Shown piece by piece: positions 1,230-22,468 of a DNA stretch of 64,000 bases; the stretch's first letter is position 1, and every line of letters begins with the position of its first letter. The position numbers and the translations under genes were made by a program. The stretch lies in NCBI GenBank assembly GCA_964421975.1, contig CAYQZL010000004.1, forward strand, positions 818 to 64,817. The letters run 5' to 3'. The notes under the pieces were generated by a model, which had not been told where the DNA came from, made no database searches, and saw nothing but the letters and a program-made list of their open reading frames with translations. The stretch comes from an uncultured Rikenellaceae bacterium. GTDB taxonomy: Bacteria > Bacteroidota > Bacteroidia > Bacteroidales > VadinHA17.

Positions 1230-2246
1230 ATGGACAAAAGATATCTCTGCGGACTCAATCTTGAAGAGATCACTGATCTGATAAGACCAGGCGGGTATAC
1301 ACGCAGTCAGGCAGTTATTGTCGCAGGTATTCTGTACAGAAAAGGAGAATCAGGACTGATCCGGACAACACGGATCCCTGTCATGCTGAAGAAATTCCTG
1401 TTTGAAACTGCTTCCGCCGGGATCTATAGCCCGGTGAAATCGGAAAAATCAGTTGACGGTACCATAAAATATCTGTTTGCATCTCCTGATGGAAAGAAGT
1501 ATGAATCGGTATATATTCCTGAAGAAAAGCGCAAGACCGTATGCGTTTCCACACAGTCGGGATGCAGAATGGGATGCCCTTTCTGTGTTACTGCAGGATA
1601 TGGTTTTCATGGGAATCTTTCAGCAGGGGATATAGTAAACCAGGTACTCGCCAATCCGTTTCATGAAAAGATCACTCATGTGGTTTTCATGGGAATGGGA
1701 GAACCGATGGATAATCTTGATAATGTTCTGAAAGCTGTAAATATACTGACTGCTGAATGGGGTCTGGCAATCAGCAACAGGAATATCACAGTTTCGACTG
1801 TCGGGATAACATCGCAGGTGAAAAGATTTCTGCAGGAATCAGAATGCAACCTTGCACTTAGTCTCTATTCTCCTTTCCCCGGTGAAAGAATTAATGTCAT
1901 ACCAATTGAAAAAGCCTTTCCGGTGAAGGAAATAATCAGCTTTATGGCAGATTATCCCCTTAGGAAAAAAAGACGGCTCAGTATTGCATATATAATGATA
2001 AAAGGGATTAATGATACTGAAACTCACCTCACTGAACTTAAGAATATACTGGTCAATACCGGTATAAGAGTTAACCTGATGCCATATCATTCAGTGCAGG
2101 GTGATAAAGGAGAATCATCATCCGACGAGCGGATGCAGTATTTCAGGCATGATCTGATCATGGCAGGGATATCGGCTTCTGTGAGGAAGTCAAGGGGAGC
2201 TGATATTTCCGCTGCATGCGGATTACTGGCATCAGGGATGAGATAA
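1230..2246 (+). CDS. rlmN: 23S rRNA/tRNA (adenine-C2)-methyltransferase, radical SAM RlmN/Cfr family
   Basis: 338 aa. Radical-SAM CxxxCxxC motif (CRMGCPFC), GMGEPMDN, and the C-terminal DISAACGLL motif typical of RlmN. Confidence 0.85.
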   Translation: MDKRYLCGLNLEEITDLIRPGGYTRSQAVIVAGILYRKGESGLIRTTRIPVMLKKFLFETASAGIYSPVKSEKSVDGTIKYLFASPDGKKYESVYIPEEKRKTVCVSTQSGCRMGCPFCVTAGYGFHGNLSAGDIVNQVLANPFHEKITHVVFMGMGEPMDNLDNVLKAVNILTAEWGLAISNRNITVSTVGITSQVKRFLQESECNLALSLYSPFPGERINVIPIEKAFPVKEIISFMADYPLRKKRRLSIAYIMIKGINDTETHLTELKNILVNTGIRVNLMPYHSVQGDKGESSSDERMQYFRHDLIMAGISASVRKSRGADISAACGLLASGMR

Positions 2247-2251
2247 TCAGG

Positions 2252-2773
2252 TTAATGATTATTAACCAGCTGGAACATATATTCGTCCAGGTATCCGTCG
2301 GCTGTCTTCACCCAATCCTTTTTGATACCGATCTCTATAAATCCAATCTTTCTGAACAGGTCAATGCTTTCGCAGTTGTTTGCAAGGATATTACAGTAAA
2401 GCTGGTGCAGCTGAAGGGTATCGAAACAGTAAGCGATCAGGCATCTGAGTGCCATTGTTGCATAACCTTTTCTTCTCTGGTCTTCATCGGCAATCAGTAT
2501 ACCCATTCCGGCCCTGAGATGAAAAGGATCAAAATCAAAAATATCTATTGTCCCGATTGTCTGTTTTTTGTCAGTCAGGTCAATCATCAACCTCAGTTGC
2601 CCCGTTTCATAAATATTCTTGTGAGAGTTCTTGATATACCTTTTGAGAGTATATTTTGAGAACGGGGCAACTGTATTGCTGATGATCCAGTAGGAGTTAT
2701 TATTTTCCCATTCATAGAGCAGTTCCAGATCTTCCGGCTCAATAGCCCTCAATCTGATTTTTTCATATTTCAT
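2252..2773 (-). CDS. GNAT family N-acetyltransferase (RimJ/RimL-like)
   Basis: 173 aa. N-terminus IRLRAIEPEDLELLYEWENN and a QRRKGYATMAL acetyl-CoA-binding-type motif. Starts 27 nt downstream of the stop of paralog P1, on the same strand. Confidence 0.7.
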   Translation of the reverse strand: MKYEKIRLRAIEPEDLELLYEWENNNSYWIISNTVAPFSKYTLKRYIKNSHKNIYETGQLRLMIDLTDKKQTIGTIDIFDFDPFHLRAGMGILIADEDQRRKGYATMALRCLIAYCFDTLQLHQLYCNILANNCESIDLFRKIGFIEIGIKKDWVKTADGYLDEYMFQLVNNH

Positions 2774-2800
2774 ATATTGTCTTTACTGCTCCTGTTTCAG

Positions 2801-5032
2801 TTATTCTGTTTCGGTTATATATGCTTCGTTGTATCCTTTTCCTTTGACATAGTTCAGATACTTTTCAGCATCGGCTTTGTCGAAGAATACACCGATAATA
2901 TATTTCGTTTCTGTGCCTTCTTCTTTTGTCCTGATGACCAGTTTGCCACTCAGGTCAAGATTGCTGAAATAGCCTGAAGATAGCTTTTGAGGTGATTGTA
3001 TCAGTACGATATAGAATTTGTCAGTTGCAGGATTCACCAGTTCTTTTGGTGTTTCCGTATCATGTCTTATTATTACACCGGTACCGGGATCGATGACACC
3101 GATTGTTGCTCTTCTGTTGTATTTTCTTCCTTCAGGATTATCAGTACCGTTCCTGTTGGTATTGATTGCGGCAAAATTGGATTCACCGAATGCTCTCTTT
3201 ATCATTCTGTCTGCAGGGATACCCGATGCGGTGATATGATCAATAACTGACTGGGCCCTTTTGTCTGCAAGCTTTCTGTTATAGATTATGGTTCCGAGTG
3301 CATCTGTATAACCGGCGACTTCTATTTTAAGCTCGGGATAATTCCTGAGGATGGTCTTAAGGGTCTCCAGGCTCTCCTTAGCTTCGCTGTCAAGTGCATG
3401 GCTGTCGAATGCAAAAAGGACATTTTTTATCAGCAGGAATTCCCCTGTCACAGCTTTTTCAGGTATCAGAACCGGATTTACATTCATGTAATGATTCAGG
3501 AAATAAAGAGGAAGGCTCAGGTTCGTAGTATCGGTCCTGTATCCTATATGGCTTACTATCAGGTGATAATCGCCGGGTTTGAGGTCAAATTTGAATGATC
3601 CGTCATTGTTGACGGGGATAGTCTGAAGGACAGTTCCCTTTTTCAGTTCCTTAAGGATCATTTGTGCCTGTGACGGAGTTATATTCATACCGTCGCCCAG
3701 TTTGACAACCCCTTCAGTAACGGTTATCTCATCAGCGGGATCAACTCCGACAATAGCGTAAATATTCCTCGTTCCCGTCTTCTCATCATAGAGACTTGTA
3801 ATAAAGCCCGGAGCATTATTATTGAGATGGAAAAAGATATTATCATCCGTTGTGTTGAAAGCGAAAGGCATACCAACCGGCCTGTCCCAGTTCCCGAATC
3901 TGTTTATTGTTGATCTGAAAAGATCATATTTCCCCATACTCATATGTCCTACAGAACTGAAAAGAAGGGCATTATTATCAGGATCGAAGAATGGTGCATC
4001 TTCATCCTGTGCAGTATTTATAACATCTCCGAGGTTCACCGGTTCACCCCATGTTCCTGAAGCTGTTTTCTCGGATACCCATATATCCAGTTTGCCGAAA
4101 CCGCCGGGACGGTTACTTGAGAGATATAGTTTTGTTGCATCCGGAGTTATAAAACCATGTGATTCCCAGTAGATTGTATTGACCGGTTTCCCGAAATTCC
4201 TGATTTTTGTCCAGGTTTTTCCCTGTCTTTCGCTGAAATACAGGTTTCCGTCATTACCATCGTTTATATAGAGTACAAGAAAACGGCCATCACCCGAAAC
4301 AGAGTTTGTATATAGCCTTTCGAGACCTCCCAGTTGCTGGGTAATATCTTCCGGTTCTTCCCAGTTGCCGCTCTTATAGGCACACATGATACGGTTCTTA
4401 CCATCCACCCTTTGCGTAAAAACGAATACGGAATCATTTTTCGAAATAACCGGATTCATTGCTCCGGGGTAATTGCTGATCCATGGTGTAAACAGGTCGG
4501 GCAGAACTCTCACAGGTTTCTTTTTTGCTTCCATTGCATATCTGCAGTCTCTTATCTGCAGATCGTAATATTCCGCCATTTCAAGGTCTTCTTCGCTGTT
4601 ACCGAGTTTGTTTTTCAGGTCGTTAAATATTGAAAGAGCCTTTTCCAGGTTATTATTAAGGTGATATGCTTCTGCCAGGTAGCGGTAGGTATCCACCGGG
4701 GCTTTCTGACCTGTCTCTGTGTATTCCTTTTTGTTTGCTGCGACATTTTCAGAAGCAGATTCAAGAAGTTTCAGGGCTTCGGCTTTTTTACCGTCCATTT
4801 TCAGGTAGCACATCCCGAGCTTTGCCTGGATATTTGAATTATCAGGAAAAGCTTTCAGGATCGGTTCATACAGGGAAGCAGCTTTCTCATAATCGTTGTC
4901 GAAATAAAAGACAACATCGGCATTCTGAACGGATCTGGCAAAATCCTTCAGGGTGATCTCCTGCGAGCTCAGTGCAGTGAAACAGCTGATCAGCAGGATC
5001 AAACTTAAAATTCTCTTCGTTAAATGGGTCAT
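2801..5032 (-). CDS. Envelope protein P1: TPR + PD40/TolB-like propeller + CarboxypepD_reg-like + OmpA_C + SPOR-like C-terminus (paralog 1 of 4)
   Basis: 743 aa with a signal peptide. TPR core FPDNSNIQAKLGMCYLKM. Propeller blade ESHGFITPDATKLYLSSNRPGGFGKLDIWVS. OmpA_C motif FAFDSHALD...IEVAGYTDALGTIIYNRKLADKRAQSV...NRRATIGV. C-terminal FYIVL...YIIGVFFDKADAEKYLNYVKGKGYNEAYI resembles a SPOR domain. Confidence 0.8.
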   Translation of the reverse strand: MTHLTKRILSLILLISCFTALSSQEITLKDFARSVQNADVVFYFDNDYEKAASLYEPILKAFPDNSNIQAKLGMCYLKMDGKKAEALKLLESASENVAANKKEYTETGQKAPVDTYRYLAEAYHLNNNLEKALSIFNDLKNKLGNSEEDLEMAEYYDLQIRDCRYAMEAKKKPVRVLPDLFTPWISNYPGAMNPVISKNDSVFVFTQRVDGKNRIMCAYKSGNWEEPEDITQQLGGLERLYTNSVSGDGRFLVLYINDGNDGNLYFSERQGKTWTKIRNFGKPVNTIYWESHGFITPDATKLYLSSNRPGGFGKLDIWVSEKTASGTWGEPVNLGDVINTAQDEDAPFFDPDNNALLFSSVGHMSMGKYDLFRSTINRFGNWDRPVGMPFAFNTTDDNIFFHLNNNAPGFITSLYDEKTGTRNIYAIVGVDPADEITVTEGVVKLGDGMNITPSQAQMILKELKKGTVLQTIPVNNDGSFKFDLKPGDYHLIVSHIGYRTDTTNLSLPLYFLNHYMNVNPVLIPEKAVTGEFLLIKNVLFAFDSHALDSEAKESLETLKTILRNYPELKIEVAGYTDALGTIIYNRKLADKRAQSVIDHITASGIPADRMIKRAFGESNFAAINTNRNGTDNPEGRKYNRRATIGVIDPGTGVIIRHDTETPKELVNPATDKFYIVLIQSPQKLSSGYFSNLDLSGKLVIRTKEEGTETKYIIGVFFDKADAEKYLNYVKGKGYNEAYITETE

Positions 5033-6969
5033 TATCTTAGTACTTTTTTAATGAATATCTCGTCGGGATATCCTCTTCTGATCAGTTCAAGCCTCCATGC
5101 CTTTGCCTCATCCTGTGTACTGAACTGGCCGGTAGTGTACCTGTAAAATCTGTCCTTCTCATTAAACATTACTTTGATATCAGCAATGTACCTGAAATAA
5201 CTGATGTCAACAGGGTTATACAATGCCATCACCTGGACAGTATAGTATAGTACTCCCGGCTCGTCAGCGGAATCAGTTATATTGAGCACATTCAGGTTCC
5301 TTATGAGCATGCTTGAATCAACCGAAGCAACCGATGGTATTCCTGCCAGATTTATTCTTTCATACTCAGCTTCGATCAGTGAAGAGTCTCTCATTAGGAG
5401 TATATCACCCAGAGTTATAAGCAGATCGGGGCTGTCGGCTTTGATTGTGGTATCAATTGTCGATGGCAGGTATCCCTCTCCCGAGAAAACTATCCGGAAT
5501 TCTCCGGGAGCCACTGTAAGATTGTATGATCCTGATTGTTTGTCGGGAGATGTTCTGTAGAGTGTTTCTCCCGATGTTCTGTTAAGCACAGCCACATAAC
5601 AATTTTTCTCCCCTGCAGAAGTTGTATCATCAAGCCTTATCCGTCCTGTTATTTCATATATCTGATTCACATCAGGCCCGCTTAATCCAAGATAGAAAAT
5701 ATCTCTTTTCTTATAATCAGTTTTCATGGAATAATAAGCGTTGATCCCGTTGTTGGCAGGCTGGAAAAACTTGTCATCATCGGTTGAATTGACCGGTGAT
5801 CCCAGGTTCTCCGGCTTGTCCCATCCCGGGCCTGTTATCCGGCTTTTGAAATTATCGAATCCGCCCATCGAATTATGACCTTCCGAACAGAAATATAATA
5901 AGGAATCATTGGCTGTTATGAAAGGATTATCCTCGTTATATGCAGTATTTACCGTAACTCCCAGGTTAAGCGGAATACCCCAGTCGCCTGTGGCATCAAT
6001 TTCAGATACATAAATATCCAGTCCTCCCTGTCCGCCTTCCCTGTTACTTGTGAAATAAAGCTTCTTGCCGTCAGCAGACACGGATGCATGCGATTCATAG
6101 AATTTTGTATTTATATTCCTGTTGAGCCTGGTGATGGGTGTCCAGTTATCATTCACATATTTTGAAGAATAAATATTTCCGTCAAAATCATCATTCTTAT
6201 AGATGAAAAGTTCTGTTCCGTCATTATTGAGAGAGCATGTAGAGCAATCTTCTCCCGCGTTCAGCTGTTCGGTTATTTCAACCGGTGTCTGCCAGCGGCC
6301 TCTTATTCTTTTGGAGAAATAGATCACATTTACCAGTCCTCGTCTTTCAGTATAGGCAATTGTGTTTCCATCGAAACTTACAACGGGATTTTCATTCATG
6401 GATCCCTGACTGAATTCTTCTCCGAGCATACGTTTACTCAGAGGCACAGGATTTTCAGCATATGACCTTGCATTTTCGCAGGCCAGTATCTGCTGGTCGA
6501 CAAACGCAAGGTTTTCGATGCCGCCTTTTGATTCTGTTTCCTGTGCAAGTGTCTTGAACTGTCTGAAAGTGGCAAGGCTCTTCTCATATTCATTATTGAT
6601 CATATAGGCCCGGGCAAGATAAAACCATGCATCAAGAGGAGCTCTTTCTTCTTTCAGGGATTTCGTTTTTGCATTATAACTTGCGTTTTTGACCGCTTCC
6701 TCAAGATAGGGAACAGCCTTTTCCTTTTCATCCGGAATATTCAGATAACATGTCCCGATTTTGTACTTCAGATTCATGTTTTCCGGATCTTCCAGCAGTA
6801 TATAGAGCTGGTTTGCCAGATCATATTCCTCGTACAGATAATGAGCTTCAGCCTGTTTATAGAGTTCCCTGATCTCTTTTGCAGATTGAGAACAGACAAC
6901 AACAGGAATAAAAATCAGAGTTAACAGCTGAAGTTTTAGGATCCGTGAATTTACTCTGAAACTATTCAT
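5032..6969 (-). CDS. Envelope protein P2: TPR + PD40 propeller + CarboxypepD_reg-like + SPOR-like C-terminus (paralog 2 of 4)
   Basis: 645 aa with a signal peptide. TPR core NMNLKYKIGTCYLNI. Propeller blade ESHASVSADGKKLYFTSNREGGQGGLDIYVS. C-terminus YYTVQVMALYNP...YRYTTGQFSTQDEAKAWRLELIRRGYPDEIFI is SPOR-like. Its stop overlaps the P1 start (TAATG). Confidence 0.8.
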   Translation of the reverse strand: MNSFRVNSRILKLQLLTLIFIPVVVCSQSAKEIRELYKQAEAHYLYEEYDLANQLYILLEDPENMNLKYKIGTCYLNIPDEKEKAVPYLEEAVKNASYNAKTKSLKEERAPLDAWFYLARAYMINNEYEKSLATFRQFKTLAQETESKGGIENLAFVDQQILACENARSYAENPVPLSKRMLGEEFSQGSMNENPVVSFDGNTIAYTERRGLVNVIYFSKRIRGRWQTPVEITEQLNAGEDCSTCSLNNDGTELFIYKNDDFDGNIYSSKYVNDNWTPITRLNRNINTKFYESHASVSADGKKLYFTSNREGGQGGLDIYVSEIDATGDWGIPLNLGVTVNTAYNEDNPFITANDSLLYFCSEGHNSMGGFDNFKSRITGPGWDKPENLGSPVNSTDDDKFFQPANNGINAYYSMKTDYKKRDIFYLGLSGPDVNQIYEITGRIRLDDTTSAGEKNCYVAVLNRTSGETLYRTSPDKQSGSYNLTVAPGEFRIVFSGEGYLPSTIDTTIKADSPDLLITLGDILLMRDSSLIEAEYERINLAGIPSVASVDSSMLIRNLNVLNITDSADEPGVLYYTVQVMALYNPVDISYFRYIADIKVMFNEKDRFYRYTTGQFSTQDEAKAWRLELIRRGYPDEIFIKKVLR

Positions 6970-7021
6970 ATTAACAAATGTAGCGTTTTATAAATGGTAA
7001 TCCTGATGATTTCCGATTATT

Positions 7022-8296
7022 TTACTTAAATGTGATTTTATATATATCGTAATTTCCGGAACCTTCTGCTTCCTTGAAGATGGCATGATAACCTGACCTG
7101 CCATTTGCCGCAGGCATAAAGAAAATGTTGTCGTCCGGGGTATTAAGAGGATAACCGAGGTTTACAGGTTTGCTCCAGATATTGTTTGTCTGGAGCTCGG
7201 ATCTGAACAGATCATAACCTCCGATTGTAATATGTCCCTGTGAACTGAAGAACAATGTTTTTCCGTTATTTATCAGAAAGGCACGGTCTTCGTTAAGTTC
7301 TGTGTTGATCTCCGGTCCGAGGTTGACAGCAGGGCCCCAGTCACCGTTTATTTTCTTTGATACATACAGGTCAAGTCCTCCGTATCCGCCAGGGCGATCA
7401 GAAGAGAAGATCAGTTTTTCACCATCCTCTGTCATGAAACCATGTGATTCCCAGTATCTGGTGTTTATATTCCTGTTAAGCATTCTGCAGGCACTCCATG
7501 CTGTTCCGTCGAATGTACTGGAATATATGTCGCTGTTAAAGTCGTCATCTCTTGAAAGAAACAACATCTTGCCGTCAGAAGAGAGGCAAGAGATATACAT
7601 GTCACCATCTGACATCAGTTCGGGTGTTATATTGACCGGAGGGCTCCATCTGCCTCCGTTGAGCCGGGATACCATAACAGCATCATAGAACTTGAGTGAT
7701 ACCATGAATGCAAAGGTCCTGCCATCAGATGAAATGACAGGATTGAAATTAGCTTTCTCATCATTGAACAGGATTCCGAGATTCTCTTCAATATATGAGA
7801 CAGGTTTATTTATTAGTTCACCGGCAGTGACACATGATCTGATGTGCTGTTCAACGATGGAACGGTTCTCATGATCTTCCTCAAGGAGGGTACTCCCGAA
7901 CCTGACAAAAGCATCTTCCGCTTTATCAAACTGGTAGTTTATCAGATAGGCACATCCGAGATCATAAAGAGCATCGTATGGTGCTTCCTTCTGGGTAATG
8001 GTTCCCTCTTTGTGACTTGCAGAAAGAAACTTTACAGCGGCTTCAAGATATTCTACAGCCAGATTCTTTTTCCCTGTAATATTAAGATAGCAGGCTCCTG
8101 TTCTGTAAGCAATATTTGAATTGTCGGGGATCTTTTCATAGAGCTCAAGATAAATGGGAAGTGCGTCCTGGTAATCACCGCTCATGAAAAAATATTCAGC
8201 TTCGATGAAGCTGTCCTGAAGTGAATTTGTTGCCTGAGGGAACAGAATTAACGGAAAGAATACCCAAAACAAGGCGGATATTATTCTGCGGCGCAT
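7022..8296 (-). CDS. Envelope protein P3: TPR + PD40 propeller only (paralog 3 of 4)
   Basis: The track ORF 7022..8317 begins at a TTG. The ATG at 8296 gives the signal peptide MRRRIISALFWVFFPLILF. TPR core IPDNSNIAYRTGACYLNI. Propeller blade ESHGFMTEDGEKLIFSSDRPGGYGGLDLYVS. The protein ends directly after the propeller. Confidence 0.75.
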   Translation of the reverse strand: MRRRIISALFWVFFPLILFPQATNSLQDSFIEAEYFFMSGDYQDALPIYLELYEKIPDNSNIAYRTGACYLNITGKKNLAVEYLEAAVKFLSASHKEGTITQKEAPYDALYDLGCAYLINYQFDKAEDAFVRFGSTLLEEDHENRSIVEQHIRSCVTAGELINKPVSYIEENLGILFNDEKANFNPVISSDGRTFAFMVSLKFYDAVMVSRLNGGRWSPPVNITPELMSDGDMYISCLSSDGKMLFLSRDDDFNSDIYSSTFDGTAWSACRMLNRNINTRYWESHGFMTEDGEKLIFSSDRPGGYGGLDLYVSKKINGDWGPAVNLGPEINTELNEDRAFLINNGKTLFFSSQGHITIGGYDLFRSELQTNNIWSKPVNLGYPLNTPDDNIFFMPAANGRSGYHAIFKEAEGSGNYDIYKITFK

Positions 8297-8416
8297 AACT
8301 ACTGGTTTTTTTAACAAATTTAAAAAAAATGCCGGAAAATAACAACCAAAGGGTTATTTAACAGCCCTTCACGGGATAAACATCCGTGCCGGGCTGCAGG
8401 TAAAGTACCCCTCAGA

Positions 8417-10534
8417 TTAATCTTTTTCCCCGTTTTTATCTTTCTTTCTTTTAAGAATCACAAATAAGAAAATAAGACCTGTACCTGCAATAAGCCATAA
8501 ATACCAATATCTGCAACCCTTTTTCTCTTTCTGTTCCGGGGCAGTTGTTATTACCTGATCTGCAGGGTTTTGTACTGTCGCTGCAGTACTGTCTGTACCG
8601 GCTTGCTTCTCCAGCCGTGTAATAGCTTCAGCCCTTTTTTCTGCGAGTATTTCGGGATGCTCCGGCCTTATGATCCGTCCTCTTTGAATTCTTTCAGCCT
8701 GTGAGATGAAAAACTCCTCGGAGCTTGTGTTCCCAAATTGATCCTTAAGTGTGAGCAACAACCTGCTTTCATCTTTTGAAGGCAATATTTTGTACCTGAA
8801 AAGTGTATCGGTAATATTGAATTGTTCGGTATAAAGTAAGGAATCTCCTTTCAGATGTTCTGCCGTAAGAACAGAATTTGATTCAACTATAAGCGGGATC
8901 ACAAGGGTATCTTTCCCGGAGGATACCAGGTTTCTTTCTTCTCCGGCCTGAAGAACTGCCACATCATCAGTTTTGGGCAGGATCGTCGGTGGCAGGATGA
9001 AAGAATCTGATTTGCTGGCAAGAGGCAGGTGAATATCCTTGCGAAATATCTCTTTACCGTTGATCTCATAGATGACGGTATGATCTCCGTGGTTTAAGAG
9101 GAGCTCATATTCTCCCGTTTCGGGATTTGCATAATCCTCTGCAGTATCTGCCGGATCTTTACTGTTGAAGGAGCTGACCCTTATTTTATCTTTTGTTTTA
9201 ATGTTCAGGCCGGCAACTTTTGCGATACCCCTGACCATGAATTTTCTGGGATGATTATCGGAAAATATTTCAAGCCTGTAAATATCCTGTTTGCCGAAAC
9301 CATCAGGACTGAGTTTTGAAAAATATCCTTCATAGCCCTGATTCAGCGGCATGAAAAACAGGTCATCATCGGTTGAATTCAGCGGATATCCCGCATTCAG
9401 AGGAACCGACCACTGGCCGTTGTCGAGAAGGGTTGAATAGAAAACATCGTGACCTCCCATTGTCATATGTCCCCTTGAGCTGAAAAAAAGCGTTTTGCCA
9501 TCCCTGCTCAGGAACGGAGTCTCCTCATTATACCTGGTATTGATCACCGGTCCCAGGTTTACAGCCGGACCCCAGTCCCCCGTTGTGTCTCTCCCCGAGA
9601 CATATATGTCGAGTCCTCCGTAGGTGCCTTTTCTGTTGCTGGTAAAAAAGAGTTTTTTATTATCGGGAGAAATCACTGCATGAGATTCCCAGTATTTGGT
9701 ATTTATATTGTCGTTAAGTCTTATTGCCGGGCTCCATGACCCGTTATTATATGTCGTTGTGTAAATGTTACCGTCATAGTTCTCGGAATTATAGAGATAG
9801 AGTACTTTGCCGTCGCCCGATAAAGATACCGGATAAATGTCCCTGTCGATCCTGAGTATCTCATTCATATTAAGCGGCCCGGTCCATGAACCATCCATCT
9901 TTACAGAATACAGAAGGGCATCATAGAATGGAAGGCTTCTGGAGAAAACCATCATTGTCTCATCGGCAGAAACAACCGGATTGTATTCGGAATTATTGTC
10001 ATTGATGGTGTTCCCGAGATTTACTTCCTTGATGAAGACAGGTGAAGCCATCAGCACTTTGGCATTCAGGCATGACTGGATCTGTAATGATACTATTACG
10101 GTATCGTATATTTCAGGATCAAGCTTTTCCATGAAAAGCTTATATGTTTCAATGGCTTTGTCCAGCTGATTATCGATCCTGTATGCATTTGCCAGATAAT
10201 ACAGTGCATCATATGGTGCTCCCTTTTCCCGGAAATTGTTTTCCCGGTAAGCGGGATTAATGTTTTCTACAGCCTCTTCAAGGAAGGAAATGGCTTTCTC
10301 TTTTTCTCCCGGCAGATTAAGATAGCACTGACCTATCCTGTATCTGATATTTGAATTATCGGGATAAGTACCAATAAGTTCCTGATATAACGGTAGTGCT
10401 TCCCTGTAATCCTCAAAAAGGATCCAGCTTTCAGCTTCATGGAAATTCATCCTGTTTTTTGCCTTTGACTGGGAAGACAGGCTGGCACTGAATATCAGGA
10501 AGAGAAAAATAATAGGTATAACCCTTCTTATCAT
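8417..10534 (-). CDS. Envelope protein P4: TPR + PD40 propeller + beta-sandwich region + charged linker + C-terminal TM anchor (paralog 4 of 4)
   Basis: 705 aa with the signal peptide MIRRVIPIIFLFLIFSASLSSQ. TPR core YPDNSNIRYRIGQCYLNL. Propeller blade ESHAVISPDNKKLFFTSNRKGTYGGLDIYVS. The C-terminus is the hydrophobic helix YWYLWLIAGTGLIFLFVIL followed by KRKKDKNGEKD. Confidence 0.8.
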   Translation of the reverse strand: MIRRVIPIIFLFLIFSASLSSQSKAKNRMNFHEAESWILFEDYREALPLYQELIGTYPDNSNIRYRIGQCYLNLPGEKEKAISFLEEAVENINPAYRENNFREKGAPYDALYYLANAYRIDNQLDKAIETYKLFMEKLDPEIYDTVIVSLQIQSCLNAKVLMASPVFIKEVNLGNTINDNNSEYNPVVSADETMMVFSRSLPFYDALLYSVKMDGSWTGPLNMNEILRIDRDIYPVSLSGDGKVLYLYNSENYDGNIYTTTYNNGSWSPAIRLNDNINTKYWESHAVISPDNKKLFFTSNRKGTYGGLDIYVSGRDTTGDWGPAVNLGPVINTRYNEETPFLSRDGKTLFFSSRGHMTMGGHDVFYSTLLDNGQWSVPLNAGYPLNSTDDDLFFMPLNQGYEGYFSKLSPDGFGKQDIYRLEIFSDNHPRKFMVRGIAKVAGLNIKTKDKIRVSSFNSKDPADTAEDYANPETGEYELLLNHGDHTVIYEINGKEIFRKDIHLPLASKSDSFILPPTILPKTDDVAVLQAGEERNLVSSGKDTLVIPLIVESNSVLTAEHLKGDSLLYTEQFNITDTLFRYKILPSKDESRLLLTLKDQFGNTSSEEFFISQAERIQRGRIIRPEHPEILAEKRAEAITRLEKQAGTDSTAATVQNPADQVITTAPEQKEKKGCRYWYLWLIAGTGLIFLFVILKRKKDKNGEKD

Positions 10535-10663
10535 ACTGAAACAGATATAAATGGTTTAACTAAACCTGGCAAATAAAAAAATTAAAACCTGATTTCGACA
10601 GTACACTGATCCGGTAATTTTTAACTGGTTTATTATTTTTAAACCAATAAATTAGCCGCAATA

Positions 10664-10698
10664 TAATAAAAAAGGACAAAAACAGCCTGTCCTTTTTA
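10664..10698 (-). terminator. Intrinsic terminator downstream of the E2 gene
   Basis: The minus strand reads AAAAAGGACA-GGCTGTT-TTTGTCCTTTTTTATT, a stem of 7-10 bp followed by a T-run. It lies about 70 nt after the stop at 10768. Confidence 0.6.
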
Positions 10699-10767
10699 TC
10701 AACTATTGTTAATATCTTCTCAACAGTAAGACTGGAGATAAGTACTTTTTCATCCGGGAGATATTGA

Positions 10768-12078
10768 TCAGGGTAAGATCACATCTGATGAATAGTTCTC
10801 AAGTATTTCTTTTACTTTCTTAAGGAAGCGGCCGGCAAGGGCTCCGTCAATGACCCTGTGGTCATAACTCAGGGATAATATCATCACATGCCTGATGGCT
10901 ATGACATCACCTTCGGGAGTTTCTATCACGGCGGGTGTTTTTCTGACAGCTCCCGTACCAAGGATGGCAGCCTGCGGCTGGTTAATAATGGGAGTACCGG
11001 CAAGATTGTCAAAGCTTCCGAAATTGGTAAGAGTAAATGTACCTCCCGTTATCTCATCGGGCTTTAATTTGTTGTTCCTGGCCCTTTCAGCAAGATCACT
11101 TACACTTCTTGCAATTCCGTTCAGATTCTTTTCATCGGCATTTTTGATGACCGGCACTATCAGATTACCATCGGGAAGAGCTGTAGCCATCCCTATATTG
11201 ATATTCTTTTTTCTGATTATATTATTACCGTCAACAGATATATTGAGCATTGGTAATTCGGACAAAGCTCTTGCTGCGGCATCTATAAATACAGGTGTGA
11301 GCGTAAGCTTATATCCTTCGGATGCATAAAATTTATCTTTTATTGAATTCCTCCACTTTACCAGTTTCGTTACATCAGCATCAATAAACGATGTTACATG
11401 GGGGGAGGTCTTTTTGGAGAGGACCATGTGTTCGGCAATCAGCCTTCTTACCCGGTCCATCTCAATAATTTCATCTCCTGATTCCTTTGTACTTCCGGTC
11501 TGCTTTACCTTTGAAGCGGATTTCGTTTCCGGTGTTTCTTCCTTTGCAACGTCCTCTTTTTTATTTTGTGTTTCAATAAAGGCTAAAATGTCATCTCTTG
11601 TTATCCTGCCGTCCATTCCCGTTCCGGTGATCTTATCCAGATCAGAATAGCTGACATTCTCCCTCGCAGCGATGCTTCTTACAAGTGGCGAAAGGAATTT
11701 ACCGGATGGTGTCCGGCTCTTCAGATTATGAGAAGTTATCTCAATCTCCTGTTTCTCTTTTTTTATTTCAGAGATCGTATCCCTGATCCTGTCGACCTCT
11801 TTCTGTACTTTGGCAGGTTCTCCGGAGGAAAGGGAGGTTTTACTTTCAATTATGGCAATTATCTCTCCCACTTTTACAACTGATCCTTCACGAACAGTAA
11901 TCTGTACAAGCTTTCCGTCGGCAGGAGCAGGTATCTCGGAGTCGACTTTGTCTGTTGCAACCTCAACAAGCGGATCATCTTCCTTTACAATTGATCCCTC
12001 ACTTACAAGCCATTTATTGATTGTAGCTTCTATAACACCTTCCCCCATTGCGGGAAGTAATATTTCAATTCTTGCCAT
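10768..12078 (-). CDS. 2-oxoacid dehydrogenase complex E2 component (dihydrolipoamide acyltransferase)
   Basis: 436 aa. Lipoyl domain (EVATDKVDSEIPAP), E3/E1-binding motif (SPLVRSIAAREN) and catalytic DHRVIDGA. Substrate class cannot be assigned from sequence alone. Confidence 0.85.
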   Translation of the reverse strand: MARIEILLPAMGEGVIEATINKWLVSEGSIVKEDDPLVEVATDKVDSEIPAPADGKLVQITVREGSVVKVGEIIAIIESKTSLSSGEPAKVQKEVDRIRDTISEIKKEKQEIEITSHNLKSRTPSGKFLSPLVRSIAARENVSYSDLDKITGTGMDGRITRDDILAFIETQNKKEDVAKEETPETKSASKVKQTGSTKESGDEIIEMDRVRRLIAEHMVLSKKTSPHVTSFIDADVTKLVKWRNSIKDKFYASEGYKLTLTPVFIDAAARALSELPMLNISVDGNNIIRKKNINIGMATALPDGNLIVPVIKNADEKNLNGIARSVSDLAERARNNKLKPDEITGGTFTLTNFGSFDNLAGTPIINQPQAAILGTGAVRKTPAVIETPEGDVIAIRHVMILSLSYDHRVIDGALAGRFLKKVKEILENYSSDVILP

Positions 12079-12207
12079 TCTTTTGTTAACTCTCTTTTTT
12101 GTAACAGAATAACATCCTGAACGGAAAAATGTTCGGAAATCCTGTAAGGTTTTTATAACATCAGCACGTGCATTATTTTGTTGTTTTGAAATACCTTTTC
12201 GGGCAGG

Positions 12208-13464
12208 TCATTTTACGGAAGCAGCAGTGACTGAACCGCTTCCGATCAGGTATCTTTCACAGGGAGAAGCTATTCTGAACCTGATCCTGTGATGTGATAA
12301 GAGATGCATGCAGTTTATTACTGATGAAAATTTCATCTGTCCCGGCGAGAAAATGACCTGACGGATCCTGTTATTTTTGATGCATTCTTCGATGTCAGTG
12401 ATAATTTTGCTTATGTTATCATCTTCATCATCAGGGTCTTTGTTTATCCTGATGTGAATGTCCTTTTTAATGCCATAAGGGACTAGCAATTCCTTTATTC
12501 TTTGATATCCCCTGTCATCCGATATAACCATCATTCCGCTTTTCGGTATATCGCAGGTTCCTTTCAGGCGAAAGACAATTTTTAACTTCCGGAAAGGAAC
12601 CAGTATTTTTCTGAACAGACGGTGTGTCACAGACAATGCTGCCCTGAAAAGTATTGCGATCCTGACGGGAAGAATTATTTTTCTGAGGTTTCCGTTGTTG
12701 AAATGCTTCTTTACAAAGATCAGCATTGCATTATAGAAGTTGATCACAAAATCCATATCTTCCTTCTTTGTGCTCTCACCTTTGAAATGAAGTATTTTTA
12801 CTTCAGGGAAATAGTAATTCTTATAACCTGCCTTTAACAACCTGTAGCTGTAATCGATATCCTCTCCATACATAAAATAGCTTTCATCCAGCAAACCTGT
12901 TTTTTTAACAGCTTCCGAGCGGATGAACATAAAAGCCCCGGCAATTACATCAGCGTAATTGATCTCTCTGCAATCGAGATGCCCCATGTAATATCTGTTG
13001 AATCGTGGCGAGCGGGAAAACAGGTAGGACAGTCCTGAGATCTTATAAAAAGCTGTTTCCGGATCAGGAATGGCTCTTTTTGATTCCGGAAGGTATTTCC
13101 CTGAGCCGTTTATCATCATCACCCCTGCAGCACCTGCATCAATATGTTCATCCATGAAAGCAATACATTTCCTGAATGTATCCTCACCGATTATTGTATC
13201 AGGATTAAGCAGAAGTATATATTTCCCCGAAGCGATTTTAATTGCCTGGTTATTGGCAGCAGAGAATCCTCTGTTGTCATTATTGGCTATCAGTTTTACT
13301 TCCGGGAAATCTTTATATACCATTTCACAGGAGCTGTCGGAAGAATTATTGTCAACGACAAAAATCTCGCATTTTAATCCACGGGCTGCATTCTGTACGG
13401 AACAGAGGCATACAGAGAGATAATATCTGACATTGTAGCTGACAATAATGACTGAAAGGTCCAT
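12208..13464 (-). CDS. Family 2 glycosyltransferase with a C-terminal extension
   Basis: 418 aa. LSVIIVSYNVRYYL...FVVDNNSSDSS, a GT2-like core with GEDIDY, and about 130 extra C-terminal residues. Confidence 0.75.
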   Translation of the reverse strand: MDLSVIIVSYNVRYYLSVCLCSVQNAARGLKCEIFVVDNNSSDSSCEMVYKDFPEVKLIANNDNRGFSAANNQAIKIASGKYILLLNPDTIIGEDTFRKCIAFMDEHIDAGAAGVMMINGSGKYLPESKRAIPDPETAFYKISGLSYLFSRSPRFNRYYMGHLDCREINYADVIAGAFMFIRSEAVKKTGLLDESYFMYGEDIDYSYRLLKAGYKNYYFPEVKILHFKGESTKKEDMDFVINFYNAMLIFVKKHFNNGNLRKIILPVRIAILFRAALSVTHRLFRKILVPFRKLKIVFRLKGTCDIPKSGMMVISDDRGYQRIKELLVPYGIKKDIHIRINKDPDDEDDNISKIITDIEECIKNNRIRQVIFSPGQMKFSSVINCMHLLSHHRIRFRIASPCERYLIGSGSVTAASVK

Positions 13465-13536: not shown

Positions 13537-14151
13537 TTATTGCTGATAAGGATTTCTGTTGTTTATTGCTTTTCCAAGCGTTATCTCGTCTGTATATTCA
13601 AGTTCATCACCCACGGCAACGCCTCTGGCAAGCGTTGTTATAACTGGATTATATTTGCTGAGTTTCCTGTAAAGGTAATAATTTGTTGTATCACCTTCCA
13701 TGGTTGCACTAAGTGCAAGAATGACCTCAGTAATGTTACCTGATTGTACCTTCTCTTCAAGCGAATCGATCTTAAGATCTGCCGGACCGATACCTTCGAT
13801 CGGGGATATTATTCCGCCGAGGACATGATAAAGGCCCCTGTATTGCCGTGTGTTCTCAATTGCCATAACATCCTGAATGTTTTCAACCACACAGATTATT
13901 GATCTGTCACGTTTTGTATCGTTGCAAATACTGCATATCTCCGTATCTGAAATGTTATTGCAAATCCTGCAGTATTTAATTTCTGACCGAAGTCTGATTA
14001 TACTCTCACCGAATTTTATGACCTCTCCCGGATCTCTTCTCAGCAGGTTCATAACCAGCCTGAAAGCGGTTTTTCTTCCGATACCCGGGAGGGATGCAAA
14101 TTCATTTACCGCGTTCTCAAGCAGTCTGGAAGGGAATTCGGTAAAACTCAT
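13537..14151 (-). CDS. recR: Recombination protein RecR
   Basis: HhH motif [13 protein letters not shown]4 zinc finger [18 protein letters not shown], and a Toprim region ([14 protein letters not shown]). The ATG at 14151 ([15 protein letters not shown]) is preferred over the track start at 14169. Confidence 0.9.
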
Positions 14152-14319
14152 GATTTGTGTTTTTAGCAAAATTAATTCAATTTTTGATTAAGTAACCGGT
14201 TGAAAGTATCCCTTTTGAGAAGTAGCAGCACTGTAAATTGAATAATTTACATCAAACAGGCAGGATAATTTTTCAGCATCCATTCTTTTTAGTATCCTTG
14301 CAGATTAAAACAGCAACTT

Positions 14320-17171: not shown

Positions 17172-17582
17172 CATAGCCGTCAACATAAGCAATATTTTAG
17201 TTACAATAACAACTGTAATTATCTGGATTTTAACTAAATAAATTTCCCCTCCTTTCAAAGGAGGGGTGGCCGGGATTACTAATTTTGAAGCGTTTACAAT
17301 TGTCCTTTCCCCGGCCGGGGTGGTTGATCTTTGTTGTCTTCTGAACTTGCTTCCCTCAGGATTTTTTGACTTTAATTGATTCCATAAAGCGGATTCTGGA
17401 GAAGTGGAATTATTTCTCAGAATTTAATTAACCACCCCGGCCAGACAATATAAATTTCTGCAAGTCCGACGATTTCTGCGTCTGGCCACCCCTCCTTGAA
17501 AAAAGGAGGGGAAATGTATGTTCGTATATACCTCTTAATTACAGTAGTTTTCGTTGTTGATATACTTTAGTTGACGGCTATG
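17172..17582. repeat. Nested inverted-repeat element of about 411 bp, non-coding (MITE-like, inverton-like or structured RNA)
   Basis: Perfect 13-bp termini: catagccgtcaac at 17172-17184 and gttgacggctatg at 17570-17582. Two collinear inner arm pairs are present. The first is atttcccctcctttcaaaggaggggtggccgg (17242-17273) against ctggccacccctccttgaaaaaaggaggggaaat (17482-17515). The second is ccccggccggggtggtt (17310-17326) against ttaaccaccccggccag (17428-17444). No ORF of 60 aa or more lies inside. Confidence 0.8.
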
Positions 17583-17668
17583 CTCCTCAGCACTCGACAC
17601 TCACCACTCACCTCTCACCTCTCACCTCTCACCGCTCACCTCTCACCGCTCACCTCTCACCTCTCACC
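17583..17668. repeat. CTCACCT/GCTCACC heptamer tract (right flank), in the same orientation as the left tract
   Basis: The sequence reads cactcaccactcacctctcacctctcacctctcaccgctcacctctcaccgctcacctctcacctctcacc. It contains the alaS stop codon and the last codons of alaS. Confidence 0.85.
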
Positions 17669-20299
17669 TATGTGTTCCCTGACATATTTTTCAGCTCTCA
17701 TTATGGCATTCTGAATACCTCCGGGATTCTTACCACCGGCAGTTGCGAGGAAAGGCTGACCACCACCTCCGCCGTTTATTTCACCTGCAATTTCCCGGAT
17801 GATATCTGTGGCGCTCAGATCCTTTTCCTTTACCAGACGGTCACTGACCATGACAATCAGACTGGCTTTATCTCCGATCGGGGACCCAAGTACCGCGATA
17901 CTGTCAGCGGGTATTTTCCTTAATTCAAAAGCAATTGATTTTAGGGTTTCGGCAGAATCAGTTTCTATCTGACCACTTATAAATTTGAAATCATTAATTT
18001 GCCGGGCTTTTTCAATAAGATCCCTGATGATATCTCCGGCAATCCGGGATTTATATTTTTCGACCGTTTTCCTGAGAGATGCATTTTCAGTTAAAAGCTT
18101 TTCCACGCTTTCCCTGGCGCTCCCGGTGCTCTTAAGAAGTGATGCAATATCTTCAAGTTCCGATATCTTTTCATTCACATATTCGTCGGCTTCGGGTCCT
18201 GTTACCGCTTCTATCCTTCTGACTCCGGCTGCAATGGCGCTTTCGGATATTATTTTGATAAGTCCGATACCGGATGTTGATTCGACATGAGTGCCTCCGC
18301 ACAGTTCAACTGAATCTCCGAAGCGGACCACTCTTACCGTATCACCGTATTTTTCCCCGAAAAGTGCCATAGCTCCCATGGAAAGAGCTTCTTTCAGCGG
18401 TATGTTTTCAGTCACCTCTTTTGTGAAATTCTCCCTTACCAGTTGGTTGGCAATGCTTTCAACCGCGAGTATCTCTTCCCTGGTGAGTTTGCTGAAATGG
18501 CTGAAATCGAACCTTAGCCGGCCGGGTGTTACGAGTGAACCTTTCTGTTCAACATGTGATCCCAGGACTTTTCTCAGTGCATAATGAAGAAGGTGGGTGG
18601 CAGTATGGTTATTGGCTGCCATTTTACGCTTAGCCTCATCAACGGTTGCAGTGAATCCTGCATCGGGGTGGGAGGGAGCTTTCTTTGTGAGATGTATTAT
18701 CAGATCATTCTCCTTTATTGTATCATTGATCTCAATTTTTTCGAATTCCGAGACAATAATACCTGTATCGCCTGCCTGTCCGCCTGATTCTGCATAAAAA
18801 GGTGTTCTGTCGAATACAAGCTGGCATATCTCCTTTCCTTTGGTTTTTACAACACGGTATTTTGTAATCAGGATATTATCCACCGTCCTGTCATATCCCG
18901 TAAATACCGTATCATCGTTTTCCCTTATTATTATCCAGTCGCCTGCATCCAGTATGCCGTCTGCTCTCGACCGGTCTTTCTGATTCTTCATTTCTGTTTC
19001 GAATCCTTCTGTATCCAGAGTCATGCCATTCTCTTTCAGAATAAGCTGGGTCAGGTCAGCGGGAAATCCATAGGTATCGTAGAGCTCAAAAGCGATTTTC
19101 CCTGACAGGATACTTTCATTCTTCTCCTTAAGATCAGAGATCATCTTATCTATCATCCTGAGGCCTTTCCCCAGGGTTTTTAGAAAAGCTGTTTCTTCTT
19201 CAAAGATTATTTTAGATATCTGTTCTCCTGAAGATTTCAGTTCAGGATACTGATCTCCCATTACTGAAGCAAGTGCGGGGACAAGCTTATACATGAATGG
19301 TTCATCAGTGCCGAGGTAGTTATAAGCATACCTTACGGCTCTCCTGAGTATCCTGCGTATTACATATCCGGCTTTATTATTGGATGGAAGCTGCCCGTCG
19401 GCTATTGAAAATGAGACTGCCCTGAGATGATCCGCTATAACCCTCATGGCAGTATCCTGTTCCTCGTTCCTGCCATATTCCTTGCCGGTGAGGACACATA
19501 TTTCCTTAATTACGGACTGAAAAATATCTGTATCATAATTTGATTTTTTCCCCTGAACGACCATGCACAGTCTTTCAAAGCCCATACCCGTATCAACATG
19601 CCTGTCGGGCAACAGTTCAAGTGATCCGTCGGCTTTGCGTTTATACTGAATAAATACAAGGTTCCATACTTCTATTACCAGGGGATGTCCTTTATTAACA
19701 AGAGTGTGTCCGGGTATCTTTTTTCTTTCGGAGTCATCACGTATGTCCACATGGATCTCGGAGCATGGGCCACAGGGGCCGGTATCTCCCATCTCCCAGA
19801 AATTGTCTTTTTTCGATCCTTCAAGTATCCTGTCCGGATCTGCCTGAAAACACTTCTGCCACCAGCTGTATGCTTCATCATCACGCGGTACATTTTCTGA
19901 GGGACTTCCGGTAAAGATGGTTGCATACAGCCTGTCTGCCGGTATACCCAGTCTGCCGTTAAGGAATTCCCAGGCCCATTCTATGGCTTCCTTCTTGAAA
20001 TAATCGCCGAAAGACCAGTTCCCCAGCATCTCGAACATTGTATGATGATAAGTGTCATGTCCCACTTCTTCAAGATCGTTGTGCTTGCCTGAAACCCTGA
20101 GACATTTCTGTGAATCGGCAATCCTCCTGTACTTAGGCTGCATATTGCCCAGAAATATATCCTTGAACTGGTTCATTCCGGCATTTGTGAACATCAGAGT
20201 CGGATCATTCTTGATTACCATCGGGGCAGATGATACTATCTCATGTCCTTTTTCCCGGAAAAAGTCAAAGAATAACTGCCTCAGTTGCTGTGATTTCAT
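17657..20299 (-). CDS. alaS: Alanine--tRNA ligase
   Basis: FTNAGMNQFKD, editing-domain HTATHLLH, and C-terminal DHHA1-type GGGGGQP. The ATG at 20299 (MKSQQLRQLFFDFF) is preferred over the track start at 20332. Confidence 0.95.
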   Translation of the reverse strand: MKSQQLRQLFFDFFREKGHEIVSSAPMVIKNDPTLMFTNAGMNQFKDIFLGNMQPKYRRIADSQKCLRVSGKHNDLEEVGHDTYHHTMFEMLGNWSFGDYFKKEAIEWAWEFLNGRLGIPADRLYATIFTGSPSENVPRDDEAYSWWQKCFQADPDRILEGSKKDNFWEMGDTGPCGPCSEIHVDIRDDSERKKIPGHTLVNKGHPLVIEVWNLVFIQYKRKADGSLELLPDRHVDTGMGFERLCMVVQGKKSNYDTDIFQSVIKEICVLTGKEYGRNEEQDTAMRVIADHLRAVSFSIADGQLPSNNKAGYVIRRILRRAVRYAYNYLGTDEPFMYKLVPALASVMGDQYPELKSSGEQISKIIFEEETAFLKTLGKGLRMIDKMISDLKEKNESILSGKIAFELYDTYGFPADLTQLILKENGMTLDTEGFETEMKNQKDRSRADGILDAGDWIIIRENDDTVFTGYDRTVDNILITKYRVVKTKGKEICQLVFDRTPFYAESGGQAGDTGIIVSEFEKIEINDTIKENDLIIHLTKKAPSHPDAGFTATVDEAKRKMAANNHTATHLLHYALRKVLGSHVEQKGSLVTPGRLRFDFSHFSKLTREEILAVESIANQLVRENFTKEVTENIPLKEALSMGAMALFGEKYGDTVRVVRFGDSVELCGGTHVESTSGIGLIKIISESAIAAGVRRIEAVTGPEADEYVNEKISELEDIASLLKSTGSARESVEKLLTENASLRKTVEKYKSRIAGDIIRDLIEKARQINDFKFISGQIETDSAETLKSIAFELRKIPADSIAVLGSPIGDKASLIVMVSDRLVKEKDLSATDIIREIAGEINGGGGGQPFLATAGGKNPGGIQNAIMRAEKYVREHIGER

Positions 20300-22449: not shown

Positions 22450-22468
22450 GATTTTCCAGGATCTGTGC

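Follow-up and report, generated by a model that had tools for sequence, protein, structure and literature searches.

The locus and the head shared by its four genes

This analysis concerns an array of four paralogous genes in a 64-kb stretch of contig CAYQZL010000004.1, from an uncultured Rikenellaceae bacterium; the whole stretch is called the window below. The genes follow one another on the minus strand and are named A to D in the order of their transcription (P4, P3, P2, and P1, respectively, in the preliminary description of this DNA). Their products share an N-terminal half, made of a TPR block and a PD40 propeller, and they differ systematically in the anchor present at the C-terminus. 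This differentiation appears to be the new element of the locus.

Gene A occupies positions 8417-10534 (705 amino acids, aa), gene C 5032-6969 (645 aa), and gene D 2801-5032 (743 aa). Gene B spans 7022-8296 and encodes 424 aa from its ATG; an alternative TTG start at 8317 gives 431 aa. The 424-aa form is the one in the public collection entry, it agrees with all orthologs, and it sits downstream of a conserved promoter box. The A-B spacer is 99 nucleotides (nt) long, or 120 nt if B begins at its ATG, and 52 nt separate B from C. In the sequence TAATG (5030-5034, minus strand), the stop of C and the start of D overlap, which suggests translational coupling of these two genes; across 74 loci, the C-D gap has a median of -1 nt. 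A gene for a SpeG-like GNAT acetyltransferase lies 27 nt after D (2252-2773, minus strand; 173 aa, no signal peptide; Pfam Acetyltransf_3, 76.7 bits). On the other side of the array, the upstream E2 gene is followed by an intrinsic-terminator-like hairpin with a 12-bp stem, a 5-nt loop, and a T-run (10669-10697, minus strand). The preliminary description had reported the four open reading frames (ORFs) with their TPR and blade motifs, the TAATG overlap, the gaps of 52, 99, and 27 nt, and the terminator, and all of these are present. No fifth paralog was found elsewhere within the window, and no Rfam family matched at 2000-12300.

The paralogy of the four products is far beyond chance: pairwise BLASTP comparisons give 31-46% identity over 407-654 aligned residues, with E-values of 1e-77 to 1e-124. 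PD40 (PF07676) exceeds its gathering cutoff of 20.9 in all four (A 62.2, B 54.0, C 63.3, and D 44.0 bits), and Pfam TPR families match all four, above the curated cutoffs in A and D only and sub-threshold in B and C. The signal peptide, TPR block, and propeller that had been assigned to every member are borne out; the OmpA_C domain, which had been included in the shared set, turns out to be present in D only. In the AlphaFold 2 (AF2) models of A and D, the region preceding the propeller is an all-helical TPR. The propeller resembles TolB-type propellers weakly in a fold comparison, and the D sequence searched against the PDB matched the OmpA_C domain alone, with nothing for the head. Across the four types (239 orthologs), 52 core positions carry an identical residue. 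They are densest at residues 283-363 of A, two adjacent blades that contain the blade motif quoted in the preliminary description, a conserved patch that could well be a binding surface common to the four types.

The signal peptides of A-D are hydrophobic and all end in ...S/P-Q, a signal-peptidase-I-type site known in Bacteroidota as the "Q-rule". The count of orthologs with a lipobox-like cysteine is 0/44 for A, 0/41 for B, 0/77 for C, and 16/91 for D. The D signal peptide of the window contains the sequence LISC; its cysteine is not conserved among D orthologs, and the assignment of D as a lipoprotein was ruled out on this count. Since the cysteine is either absent or not conserved, none of the four would be a lipoprotein, unlike PorE, one of their two nearest named homologues.

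The placement of the family rests on profile scores. The top NCBIfam models for A-D are CHU_0125_OmpA, titled "OmpA-like outer membrane integrity protein", and T9SS_PorE (T9SS, type IX secretion system), with E-values of 1e-34 to 1e-57, yet the scores are far below the cutoffs: A 119.8, B 126.6, C 119.1, and D 185.9 bits with the PorE model (NF052230, cutoff 600 bits), and A 155.3, B 131.4, C 137.2, and D 194.3 bits with the CHU_0125 model (NF053607, cutoff 620 bits). On these scores, the four proteins belong to the PorE/CHU_0125 superfamily, and to neither of the two named families. Orthology with PorE or CHU_0125 was rejected because no score exceeds 223 bits, even when the OmpA-bearing members of the distant arrays described below are included; the two are kept as the nearest superfamily.

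Four different C-termini

In protein A, after the signal peptide come the TPR block (residues ~25-162), the PD40 propeller (~170-425), two beta-sandwiches (431-513 and 528-612), both confident in the AF2 model, a helix, a disordered linker, and finally a transmembrane (TM) helix with a KRKK tail. The TM helix covers residues 677-701 (8432-8506, minus strand; motif RYWYLWLIAGTGLIFLFVIL), is helical in the AF2 model as well, and is followed by the basic tail KRKKDKNGEKD. A hydrophobic C-terminal segment exceeds the threshold in 41 of 44 A orthologs, and the other three have one by eye. It is predicted to be an inner-membrane anchor. The same C-terminus was considered as a PEP-CTERM, GlyGly-CTERM, or LPXTG signal; these candidates were dropped, as the matches (10-18 bits) are just generic ones to a TM segment plus basic tail, with no motif. 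Protein B consists of the signal peptide, the TPR block, and the propeller, with no further domain, and all its orthologs terminate in ...DIYKITFK. It is predicted to be the soluble periplasmic member.

In C, the head is followed by a CarboxypepD_reg-like beta-sandwich (Pfam stretch, residues 440-514) and a probable C-terminal SPOR domain (residues ~573-641; 5047-5253, minus strand), which scores 19.2 bits against a Pfam cutoff of 21. Among orthologs, 23 of 35 C tails match Pfam SPOR (PF05036) at E≤0.01, the best at 2.8e-5. An hhalign comparison of the C tail with the SPOR-positive distal module of D orthologs gives a probability of 98.4%, and a PDB profile search with the same tail returns a marginal match (E 0.4) to the SPOR-containing CwlC amidase 1x60.

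Protein D carries, after its signal peptide, TPR block, and propeller, a beta-sandwich like the carboxypeptidase regulatory domain (CRD; residues ~437-517), an OmpA_C domain, and one SPOR-like module; the CarboxypepD_reg matches of Pfam are sub-threshold in both C and D. The OmpA_C domain is clear (PF00691, 57.8 bits, cutoff 27.2; Pfam stretch, residues 539-628; 3149-3418, minus strand). It contains the motif GYTDxxGxxxYNxxLxxxRA, in which D577, N585, and R592 are invariant among 33 D orthologs, and its best fold match is the C-terminal domain of PorE (6TOP, E 1.7e-7), the C-domains of Pal and OmpA matching too. In PorE, Asp576 and Asn584 are needed for function (PMC12773672), and the equivalent peptidoglycan-binding residues are conserved in D. 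Pfam finds no OmpA_C in A, B, or C. The idea that three module types had been fused and then amplified fourfold consequently does not hold, given that OmpA_C is confined to D and that the C-terminal anchors differ.

The last module of D, at residues 665-743 (2804-3040, minus strand), is a divergent SPOR-like one with a beta/alpha fold in the AF2 model (predicted local distance difference test, pLDDT, 73-89). Pfam SPOR gives no match when run directly on these residues. The assignment comes from hhalign, where the module aligns, at 95.3% and E 2e-8, with the distal module that Pfam recognises as SPOR in longer D orthologs, and the D tails of 22 of 35 orthologs match Pfam SPOR at E≤0.01. OmpA_C domains bind the stem peptide of peptidoglycan, and SPOR domains in characterised proteins bind denuded, septal glycan strands.

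Conservation and transcription of the array

GTDB species representatives were scanned, with 156 hits, and the best 80 of these loci were re-annotated; all 80 come from metagenome-assembled genomes (MAGs) labelled Bacteroidales, Bacteroidia, Bacteroidota/Bacteroidetes, or "Rikenellaceae". The neighbourhood in this clade is RecR-(GT2)-E2-[A-B]-C-D-GNAT, where GT2 is a family-2 glycosyltransferase. Among loci with complete upstream sequence, the composition is ABCD in 32, CD in 23, ACD in 2, BCD in 2, ACDD in 2, and ABBCD in 1, where the two short B ORFs overlap and are probably one split gene. The D-duplicated variants ABCDD and CDD are also seen, and two tandem D-type genes (OmpA_C plus SPOR) lie at 7261-12574 in L084, 1889-6919 in L034, and 10001-15069 in L075. 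In CD-only loci, C bears two SPOR modules. The GNAT gene follows the array directly in 72 of 75 clade loci, and the median spacers are 98 nt (A-B), 50.5 nt (B-C), -1 nt (C-D), and 20 nt (D-GNAT).

Across more than 80 species of uncultured Bacteroidales, each type is conserved as a set of orthologs. Identity is 50-83% within a type versus 31-46% between types, and in a tree of the head domains each of the four types is monophyletic. The duplication should thus be old, with each type maintained since. Hundreds of D orthologs occur in uncultured Bacteroidales. With a profile of A, a search of 1.84 billion representatives returned, at E≤1e-30, 6,304 clusters formed at 50% identity; several dozen of the divergent ones align through to the end of the TM helix, and the named ones are all from uncultured Bacteroidales or Bacteroidota.

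Beyond the clade, metagenomes were scanned with a distant A-type protein as the seed, which yielded 79 loci, and two distant contexts were examined in addition. These loci use the same slot, RecR-GT2-(E2)-array, although their members are just 30-45% identical. If T stands for a C-terminal TM helix, O for OmpA_C, S for SPOR, and b for a bare head, the 24 complete distant arrays read T-b-S-OS (11), T-O-b (4), T-b-S (4), b-T-OS (2), T-O-O-b-S (1), T-O (1), and T-S-OS (1). The T member is there by construction, an A-type protein having been the seed. It is joined by at least one gene with a peptidoglycan-binding module in 24 of 24 arrays, and a bare member occurs in 22. The GNAT gene comes next in 30 of the 39 distant loci that extend past the array, and it is absent from one T-O-b lineage. 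That one toolkit keeps reappearing in shuffled order argues more strongly than anything else for paralogs that act as a set and are not a frozen accident. Taken with the clade, these loci settle the question of synteny raised in the preliminary description: the array is conserved, neither a one-off nor a scatter of single copies.

How is the array transcribed? The -7 consensus of Bacteroidota promoters (B. fragilis type) is TAnnTTTG. A match, TAAATTTG, lies 18 nt before the B ATG (8315-8322, minus strand), and such a box is found 14-20 nt before the B start in 31 of 36 loci, at 17-20 nt in 30 of them. A second match, TACATTTG, lies 5 nt before the C ATG (6975-6982, minus strand). Boxes near the C ATG are present in 52 of 66 loci, i.e., in 28 of 38 B-C spacers (at 2 or 5 nt) and in 24 of 28 CD-only loci (mostly at 2-6 nt). 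The motif precedes D in 5 of 74 loci and A in 3 of 40, and the background in coding sequence is 0.014 per 60 nt. If the box only 2-5 nt from the C ATG is a functional promoter, the C-D-GNAT mRNA would be leaderless or nearly so.

Upstream of A, an alignment of 30 A genes revealed, by eye, a different element with two blocks on the minus strand: AGGTTT (10562-10567) and, 12 nt further on, TATATCTG (10542-10549). The latter ends 7 nt before the A ATG and matches TAnnTTTG at 7 of 8 positions, differing from the consensus that precedes B and C. In another group of loci, ATGTGCC-N7-TCCATTTAGAT takes the place of this element. It may be a non-consensus promoter, either weak or read by an alternative sigma factor. 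A sigma-70-style promoter scan gave 32 sites versus 24.6 expected, the model being uninformative for this phylum.

Just past the A stop codon, RNAfold predicts a GC-rich hairpin, CAGCCC...GGGCUG (8362-8396, minus strand), with no adjacent U-run, and the A-B spacer of the window folds with -37.2 kcal/mol (z -3.4). A conserved RNA structure or attenuator in this spacer was rejected, since z has a median of -1.2 across 30 loci and the fold is not general. Canonical terminators stand just after A in several loci (for example, L007 and L021). The likely units, judged from these signals, are A, B, and C-D-GNAT, with read-through possible. The single operon proposed in the preliminary description is doubtful: there are TAnnTTTG boxes before B and C and terminators after A in several loci, and only C-D(-GNAT) is tightly coupled.

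Possible function and neighbouring genes

The family, the domain architecture, the orthology of the types, the conservation and reshuffling of the set, and the pattern of promoter motifs are shown by the sequence analysis. To go from there to function, known systems offer some guidance. PorE is an outer-membrane lipoprotein with the order TPR-WD40-CRD-OmpA_C, which binds peptidoglycan and PorP (PMC7192894, PMC12773672), the latter through its WD40 domain (PMC12773672). The Porphyromonas gingivalis protein (PG1058/PGN_1296) has, like D, the series TPR, PD40/WD40, CRD-like beta-sandwich, and OmpA_C; the peptidoglycan-binding Asp/Asn/Arg motif is present in D, whose OmpA_C fold is nearest to 6TOP, and the organism of the window has a T9SS. 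However, A-D have no conserved lipobox, D has an extra SPOR-like module, OmpA_C is missing from the other three, and the genes form an array of differentiated paralogs with no adjoining porP-like gene. In Flavobacterium johnsoniae, six porP-like genes adjoin porE-like genes (PMC9143113). There, too, several paralogs of the PorE family occur in one genome, but the copies are dispersed, each with a porP-like gene and a gene for a cargo whose C-terminal domain (CTD) is of type B (PMC9143113), whereas the present ones are in tandem, have no porP-like neighbour, and are told apart by their anchor modules.

In 2025, PorE was proposed to be a fused CpoB-TolB-Pal, that is, a compact Tol-Pal with possible septal trafficking; several porE copies in F. 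johnsoniae and the absence of recognisable tol-pal loci from Bacteroidetes are reported in the same work (PMC12204202). Both the fusion idea and the existence of multiple porE copies are therefore already published for PorE (PMC12204202, PMC9143113). What appears to be undescribed is a conserved array of several differentiated paralogs in which PorE-like proteins are TM-anchored or fused to SPOR: the literature searched contains no SPOR domain fused to a PorE-type TPR-propeller head and no array of PorE paralogs.

CHU_0125 of Cytophaga hutchinsonii, whose NCBIfam model scores highest for all four proteins, has the common TPR, PD40, and OmpA_C architecture. Its deletion harms outer-membrane integrity (PMC5891637), and this knockout phenotype (outer-membrane permeability, vesicles) is of the type of function proposed here for A-D. 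It differs in that the gene is single and its product is annotated as a Pal-like lipoprotein, with no TM-anchored, bare, or SPOR-bearing partners. FtsN, DamX, DedD, and RlpA share with C and D a C-terminal SPOR or SPOR-like module, which in the four named proteins targets septal peptidoglycan, while the rest of these proteins is unrelated.

With the Tol-Pal/CpoB system of Proteobacteria, the array has in common the module types, namely TPR (CpoB), beta-propeller (TolB), and OmpA_C (Pal), an inner-membrane-anchored component that reaches into the periplasm, and a proposed role in coupling the envelope layers at division. In contrast, the array is without the N-terminal domain of TolB, the TolQR motor, a protein of the TolA type, and a lipidated Pal, and its modules are fused to a common head, while those of Tol-Pal are on separate proteins. 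The profile scores are also far below the cutoffs. Against the TolB model (TIGR02800, cutoff 343 bits) A-D reach 12.5-26.7 bits, and no N-terminal alpha/beta TolA-binding domain precedes the propeller; the CpoB/YbgF model (TIGR02795, cutoff 90 bits) matches A only, with 20.3 bits; and the Pal model (TIGR02802, cutoff 125 bits) gives D 52.7 bits, with no conserved lipobox. Membership in Tol-Pal was rejected on these equivalog models. The likeness to Tol-Pal/CpoB drawn in the preliminary description survives as a resemblance of module types and falls as a matter of sequence membership.

What we infer beyond this concerns localisation, protein-protein contacts, a role at the division site, and physiology. 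The reading we favour, with a confidence only somewhat better than even, is that A-D make up a modular periplasmic tethering set that would link the inner membrane and the peptidoglycan, possibly at the septum. The four proteins would be exported by a cleavable, non-lipoprotein signal peptide, with a common TPR plus PD40-propeller head and distinct feet. Their heads may bind each other or a shared partner, possibly an outer-membrane protein, as the PorE propeller binds PorP. Protein A, with its two Ig-like beta-sandwich spacers, flexible linker, and TM helix with a cytoplasmic basic tail, would serve as the inner-membrane anchor, and B as a free soluble head with no foot. The SPOR modules of C and D would hold denuded, so probably septal, glycan, and the OmpA_C of D would hold peptidoglycan stem peptides. 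The assembly would then be fixed to both the inner membrane and the peptidoglycan and probably be enriched at the division site, with C-D(-GNAT) as a translationally coupled core and A and B as accessory genes under putative promoters of their own. Such a set would be a functional analogue of Tol-Pal/CpoB, and the hetero-oligomeric scaffold suggested in the preliminary description is plausible. Tethering of this kind fits the CHU_0125 phenotype, as well as the published suggestion of PorE-type proteins as possible outer-membrane tethers that may reach the septum.

Several observations weigh against the tethering set. No outer-membrane anchor is evident in any of A-D, and a link to the outer membrane would be purely conjectural as a result. 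With promoter-like boxes of their own, B and C could be expressed independently, and an obligatory complex is then less likely. In 23 species C-D stands alone at the locus, so that A and B are either dispensable there or encoded elsewhere. The gene order in the clade is in part general synteny, because RecR, E2, and the radical-SAM gene are equally conserved. On the structural side, the SPOR score of the C protein in the window is slightly under the Pfam cutoff, the tail module of D is SPOR-like by transitive profile matching alone, and the propeller half of both AF2 models (A and D) is of low confidence, the second half of the propeller being poorly modelled. Moreover, every locus comes from an uncultured MAG or a metagenome.

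Could the array instead be an accessory module of the T9SS, which, in the manner of PorE and of the PorE-like proteins of F. johnsoniae, would tie to the cell wall either PorP-like outer-membrane proteins with their type-B CTD cargo or the T9SS itself? The closeness of PorE, as co-nearest named homologue and through the 6TOP-like OmpA_C fold of D, speaks for it, together with the binding of PorP by the PorE WD40 domain (PMC12773672), the PorV, PorU, PorP/SprF-like, and GldJ/PorK-like genes at 28.7-36 kb in the window, and the Por_Secre_tail genes near the array in relatives. Nevertheless, the explanation seems unlikely: members of the distant arrays score 117-195 bits with the PorE model, against its cutoff of 600, and none of the proteins is a lipoprotein; among the genes called for five loci, none beside the array is porP-like, and the porP-like gene in the window is 23 kb away with no PorE-like neighbour; and a TM-anchored member and SPOR fusions are foreign to PorE. 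The four could also be independent paralogs that do not interact, having arisen by tandem duplication and subfunctionalised for different ligands or conditions, so that their clustering would be an accident held by synteny. The boxes before B and C, the terminators after A in some loci, the variable copy number (CD, BCD, ACD, ABCDD), and the flanking housekeeping genes, equally syntenic in the clade, would all fit. This is rather improbable in view of the same combination of anchor types, re-ordered and always in one cluster, in lineages 30-45% identical, of the conserved C/D overlap, and of the head patch conserved in all types.

A true energised homologue of Tol-Pal would have A as a TolA coupled to a TolQR/ExbBD motor, with B, C, and D as TolB, CpoB, and Pal. 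Besides the parallel of TPR, propeller, and OmpA_C with CpoB, TolB, and Pal, it could appeal to tol-pal loci reported missing from Bacteroidota (PMC12204202) and to the long periplasmic reach of the membrane-anchored A in the AF2 model. We give it very little credence. The scores quoted above are far below the cutoffs for TolB, YbgF, and Pal, with no TolB N-terminal domain; the TM helix of A is C-terminal, whereas that of TolA is N-terminal, and A is without the TolA/TonB C-terminal domain; and the genes called within ±10 kb of the array, available for five loci, include none of the MotA/ExbB or ExbD type.

The tethering set can be carried further, to a bolder and doubtful version in which the array is an unrecognised trans-envelope division apparatus of Bacteroidota, with a hetero-oligomer of heads, A in the inner membrane, and the SPOR modules of C and D on septal peptidoglycan. 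With no tol-pal locus identified in Bacteroidota (PMC12204202), it is still an open matter how their outer membrane is kept in place and constricted at division. If the bolder version is true, the apparatus would replace the missing Tol-Pal in outer-membrane constriction and envelope integrity at cytokinesis, and the GNAT protein would be a cytoplasmic accessory, in a position analogous to that of YbgC in tol-pal operons. In any case, the locus offers natural evidence on the idea of PorE at the septum, with PorE-type heads fused, across a large radiation of uncultured Bacteroidales, to SPOR and, on a sister paralog, to an inner-membrane anchor, and the whole kept as a set. The proposal thereby becomes testable, as it predicts septal C and D, an inner-membrane A, and contacts between heads or between a head and an outer-membrane protein. 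Automatic labels like "OmpA family protein" and "tetratricopeptide repeat protein" conceal a structured multi-gene system.

The surroundings of the array can be described more briefly. The GNAT protein, SpeG-like and cytoplasmic, matches PDB 3tth, a spermidine N1-acetyltransferase (E 4e-17). In the distant loci its gene lies at 17360-17887 (L088) and 20687-21235 (L089). A gene for an Orn/Arg/DAP decarboxylase, a candidate polyamine link, stands just upstream of GT2 in L088, and a gene for a rhomboid-family protease is found three genes downstream of GNAT in both (20271-20882 in L088; 22789-23222 in L089). In the window, GT2 is at 12208-13464 and RecR at 13537-14169; both stay upstream of the array in the distant lineages, where GT2 grows from ~410 to ~655 aa. 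Past the radical-SAM gene, a DUF6786 lipoprotein-like gene is a conserved neighbour (1-1083 in the window; also in L001 and L005).

About 10 kb from the array are two tandem M23 peptidase paralogs of 323 aa each (20414-21385 and 21478-22449), with a PGA_cap-family gene next to them (22442-23617); a role of these genes in cell-wall remodelling is possible. The T9SS-related genes comprise PorV (28722-29915, minus strand), a PorU-like C25 peptidase (29969-33409, minus strand), a PorP/SprF-like gene (33508-34476, plus strand), beside which there is no PorE-like gene, and a GldJ/PorK-like FGE-sulfatase lipoprotein (34552-36042, plus strand). A gene for a MurF-like ligase follows at 36108-37397.

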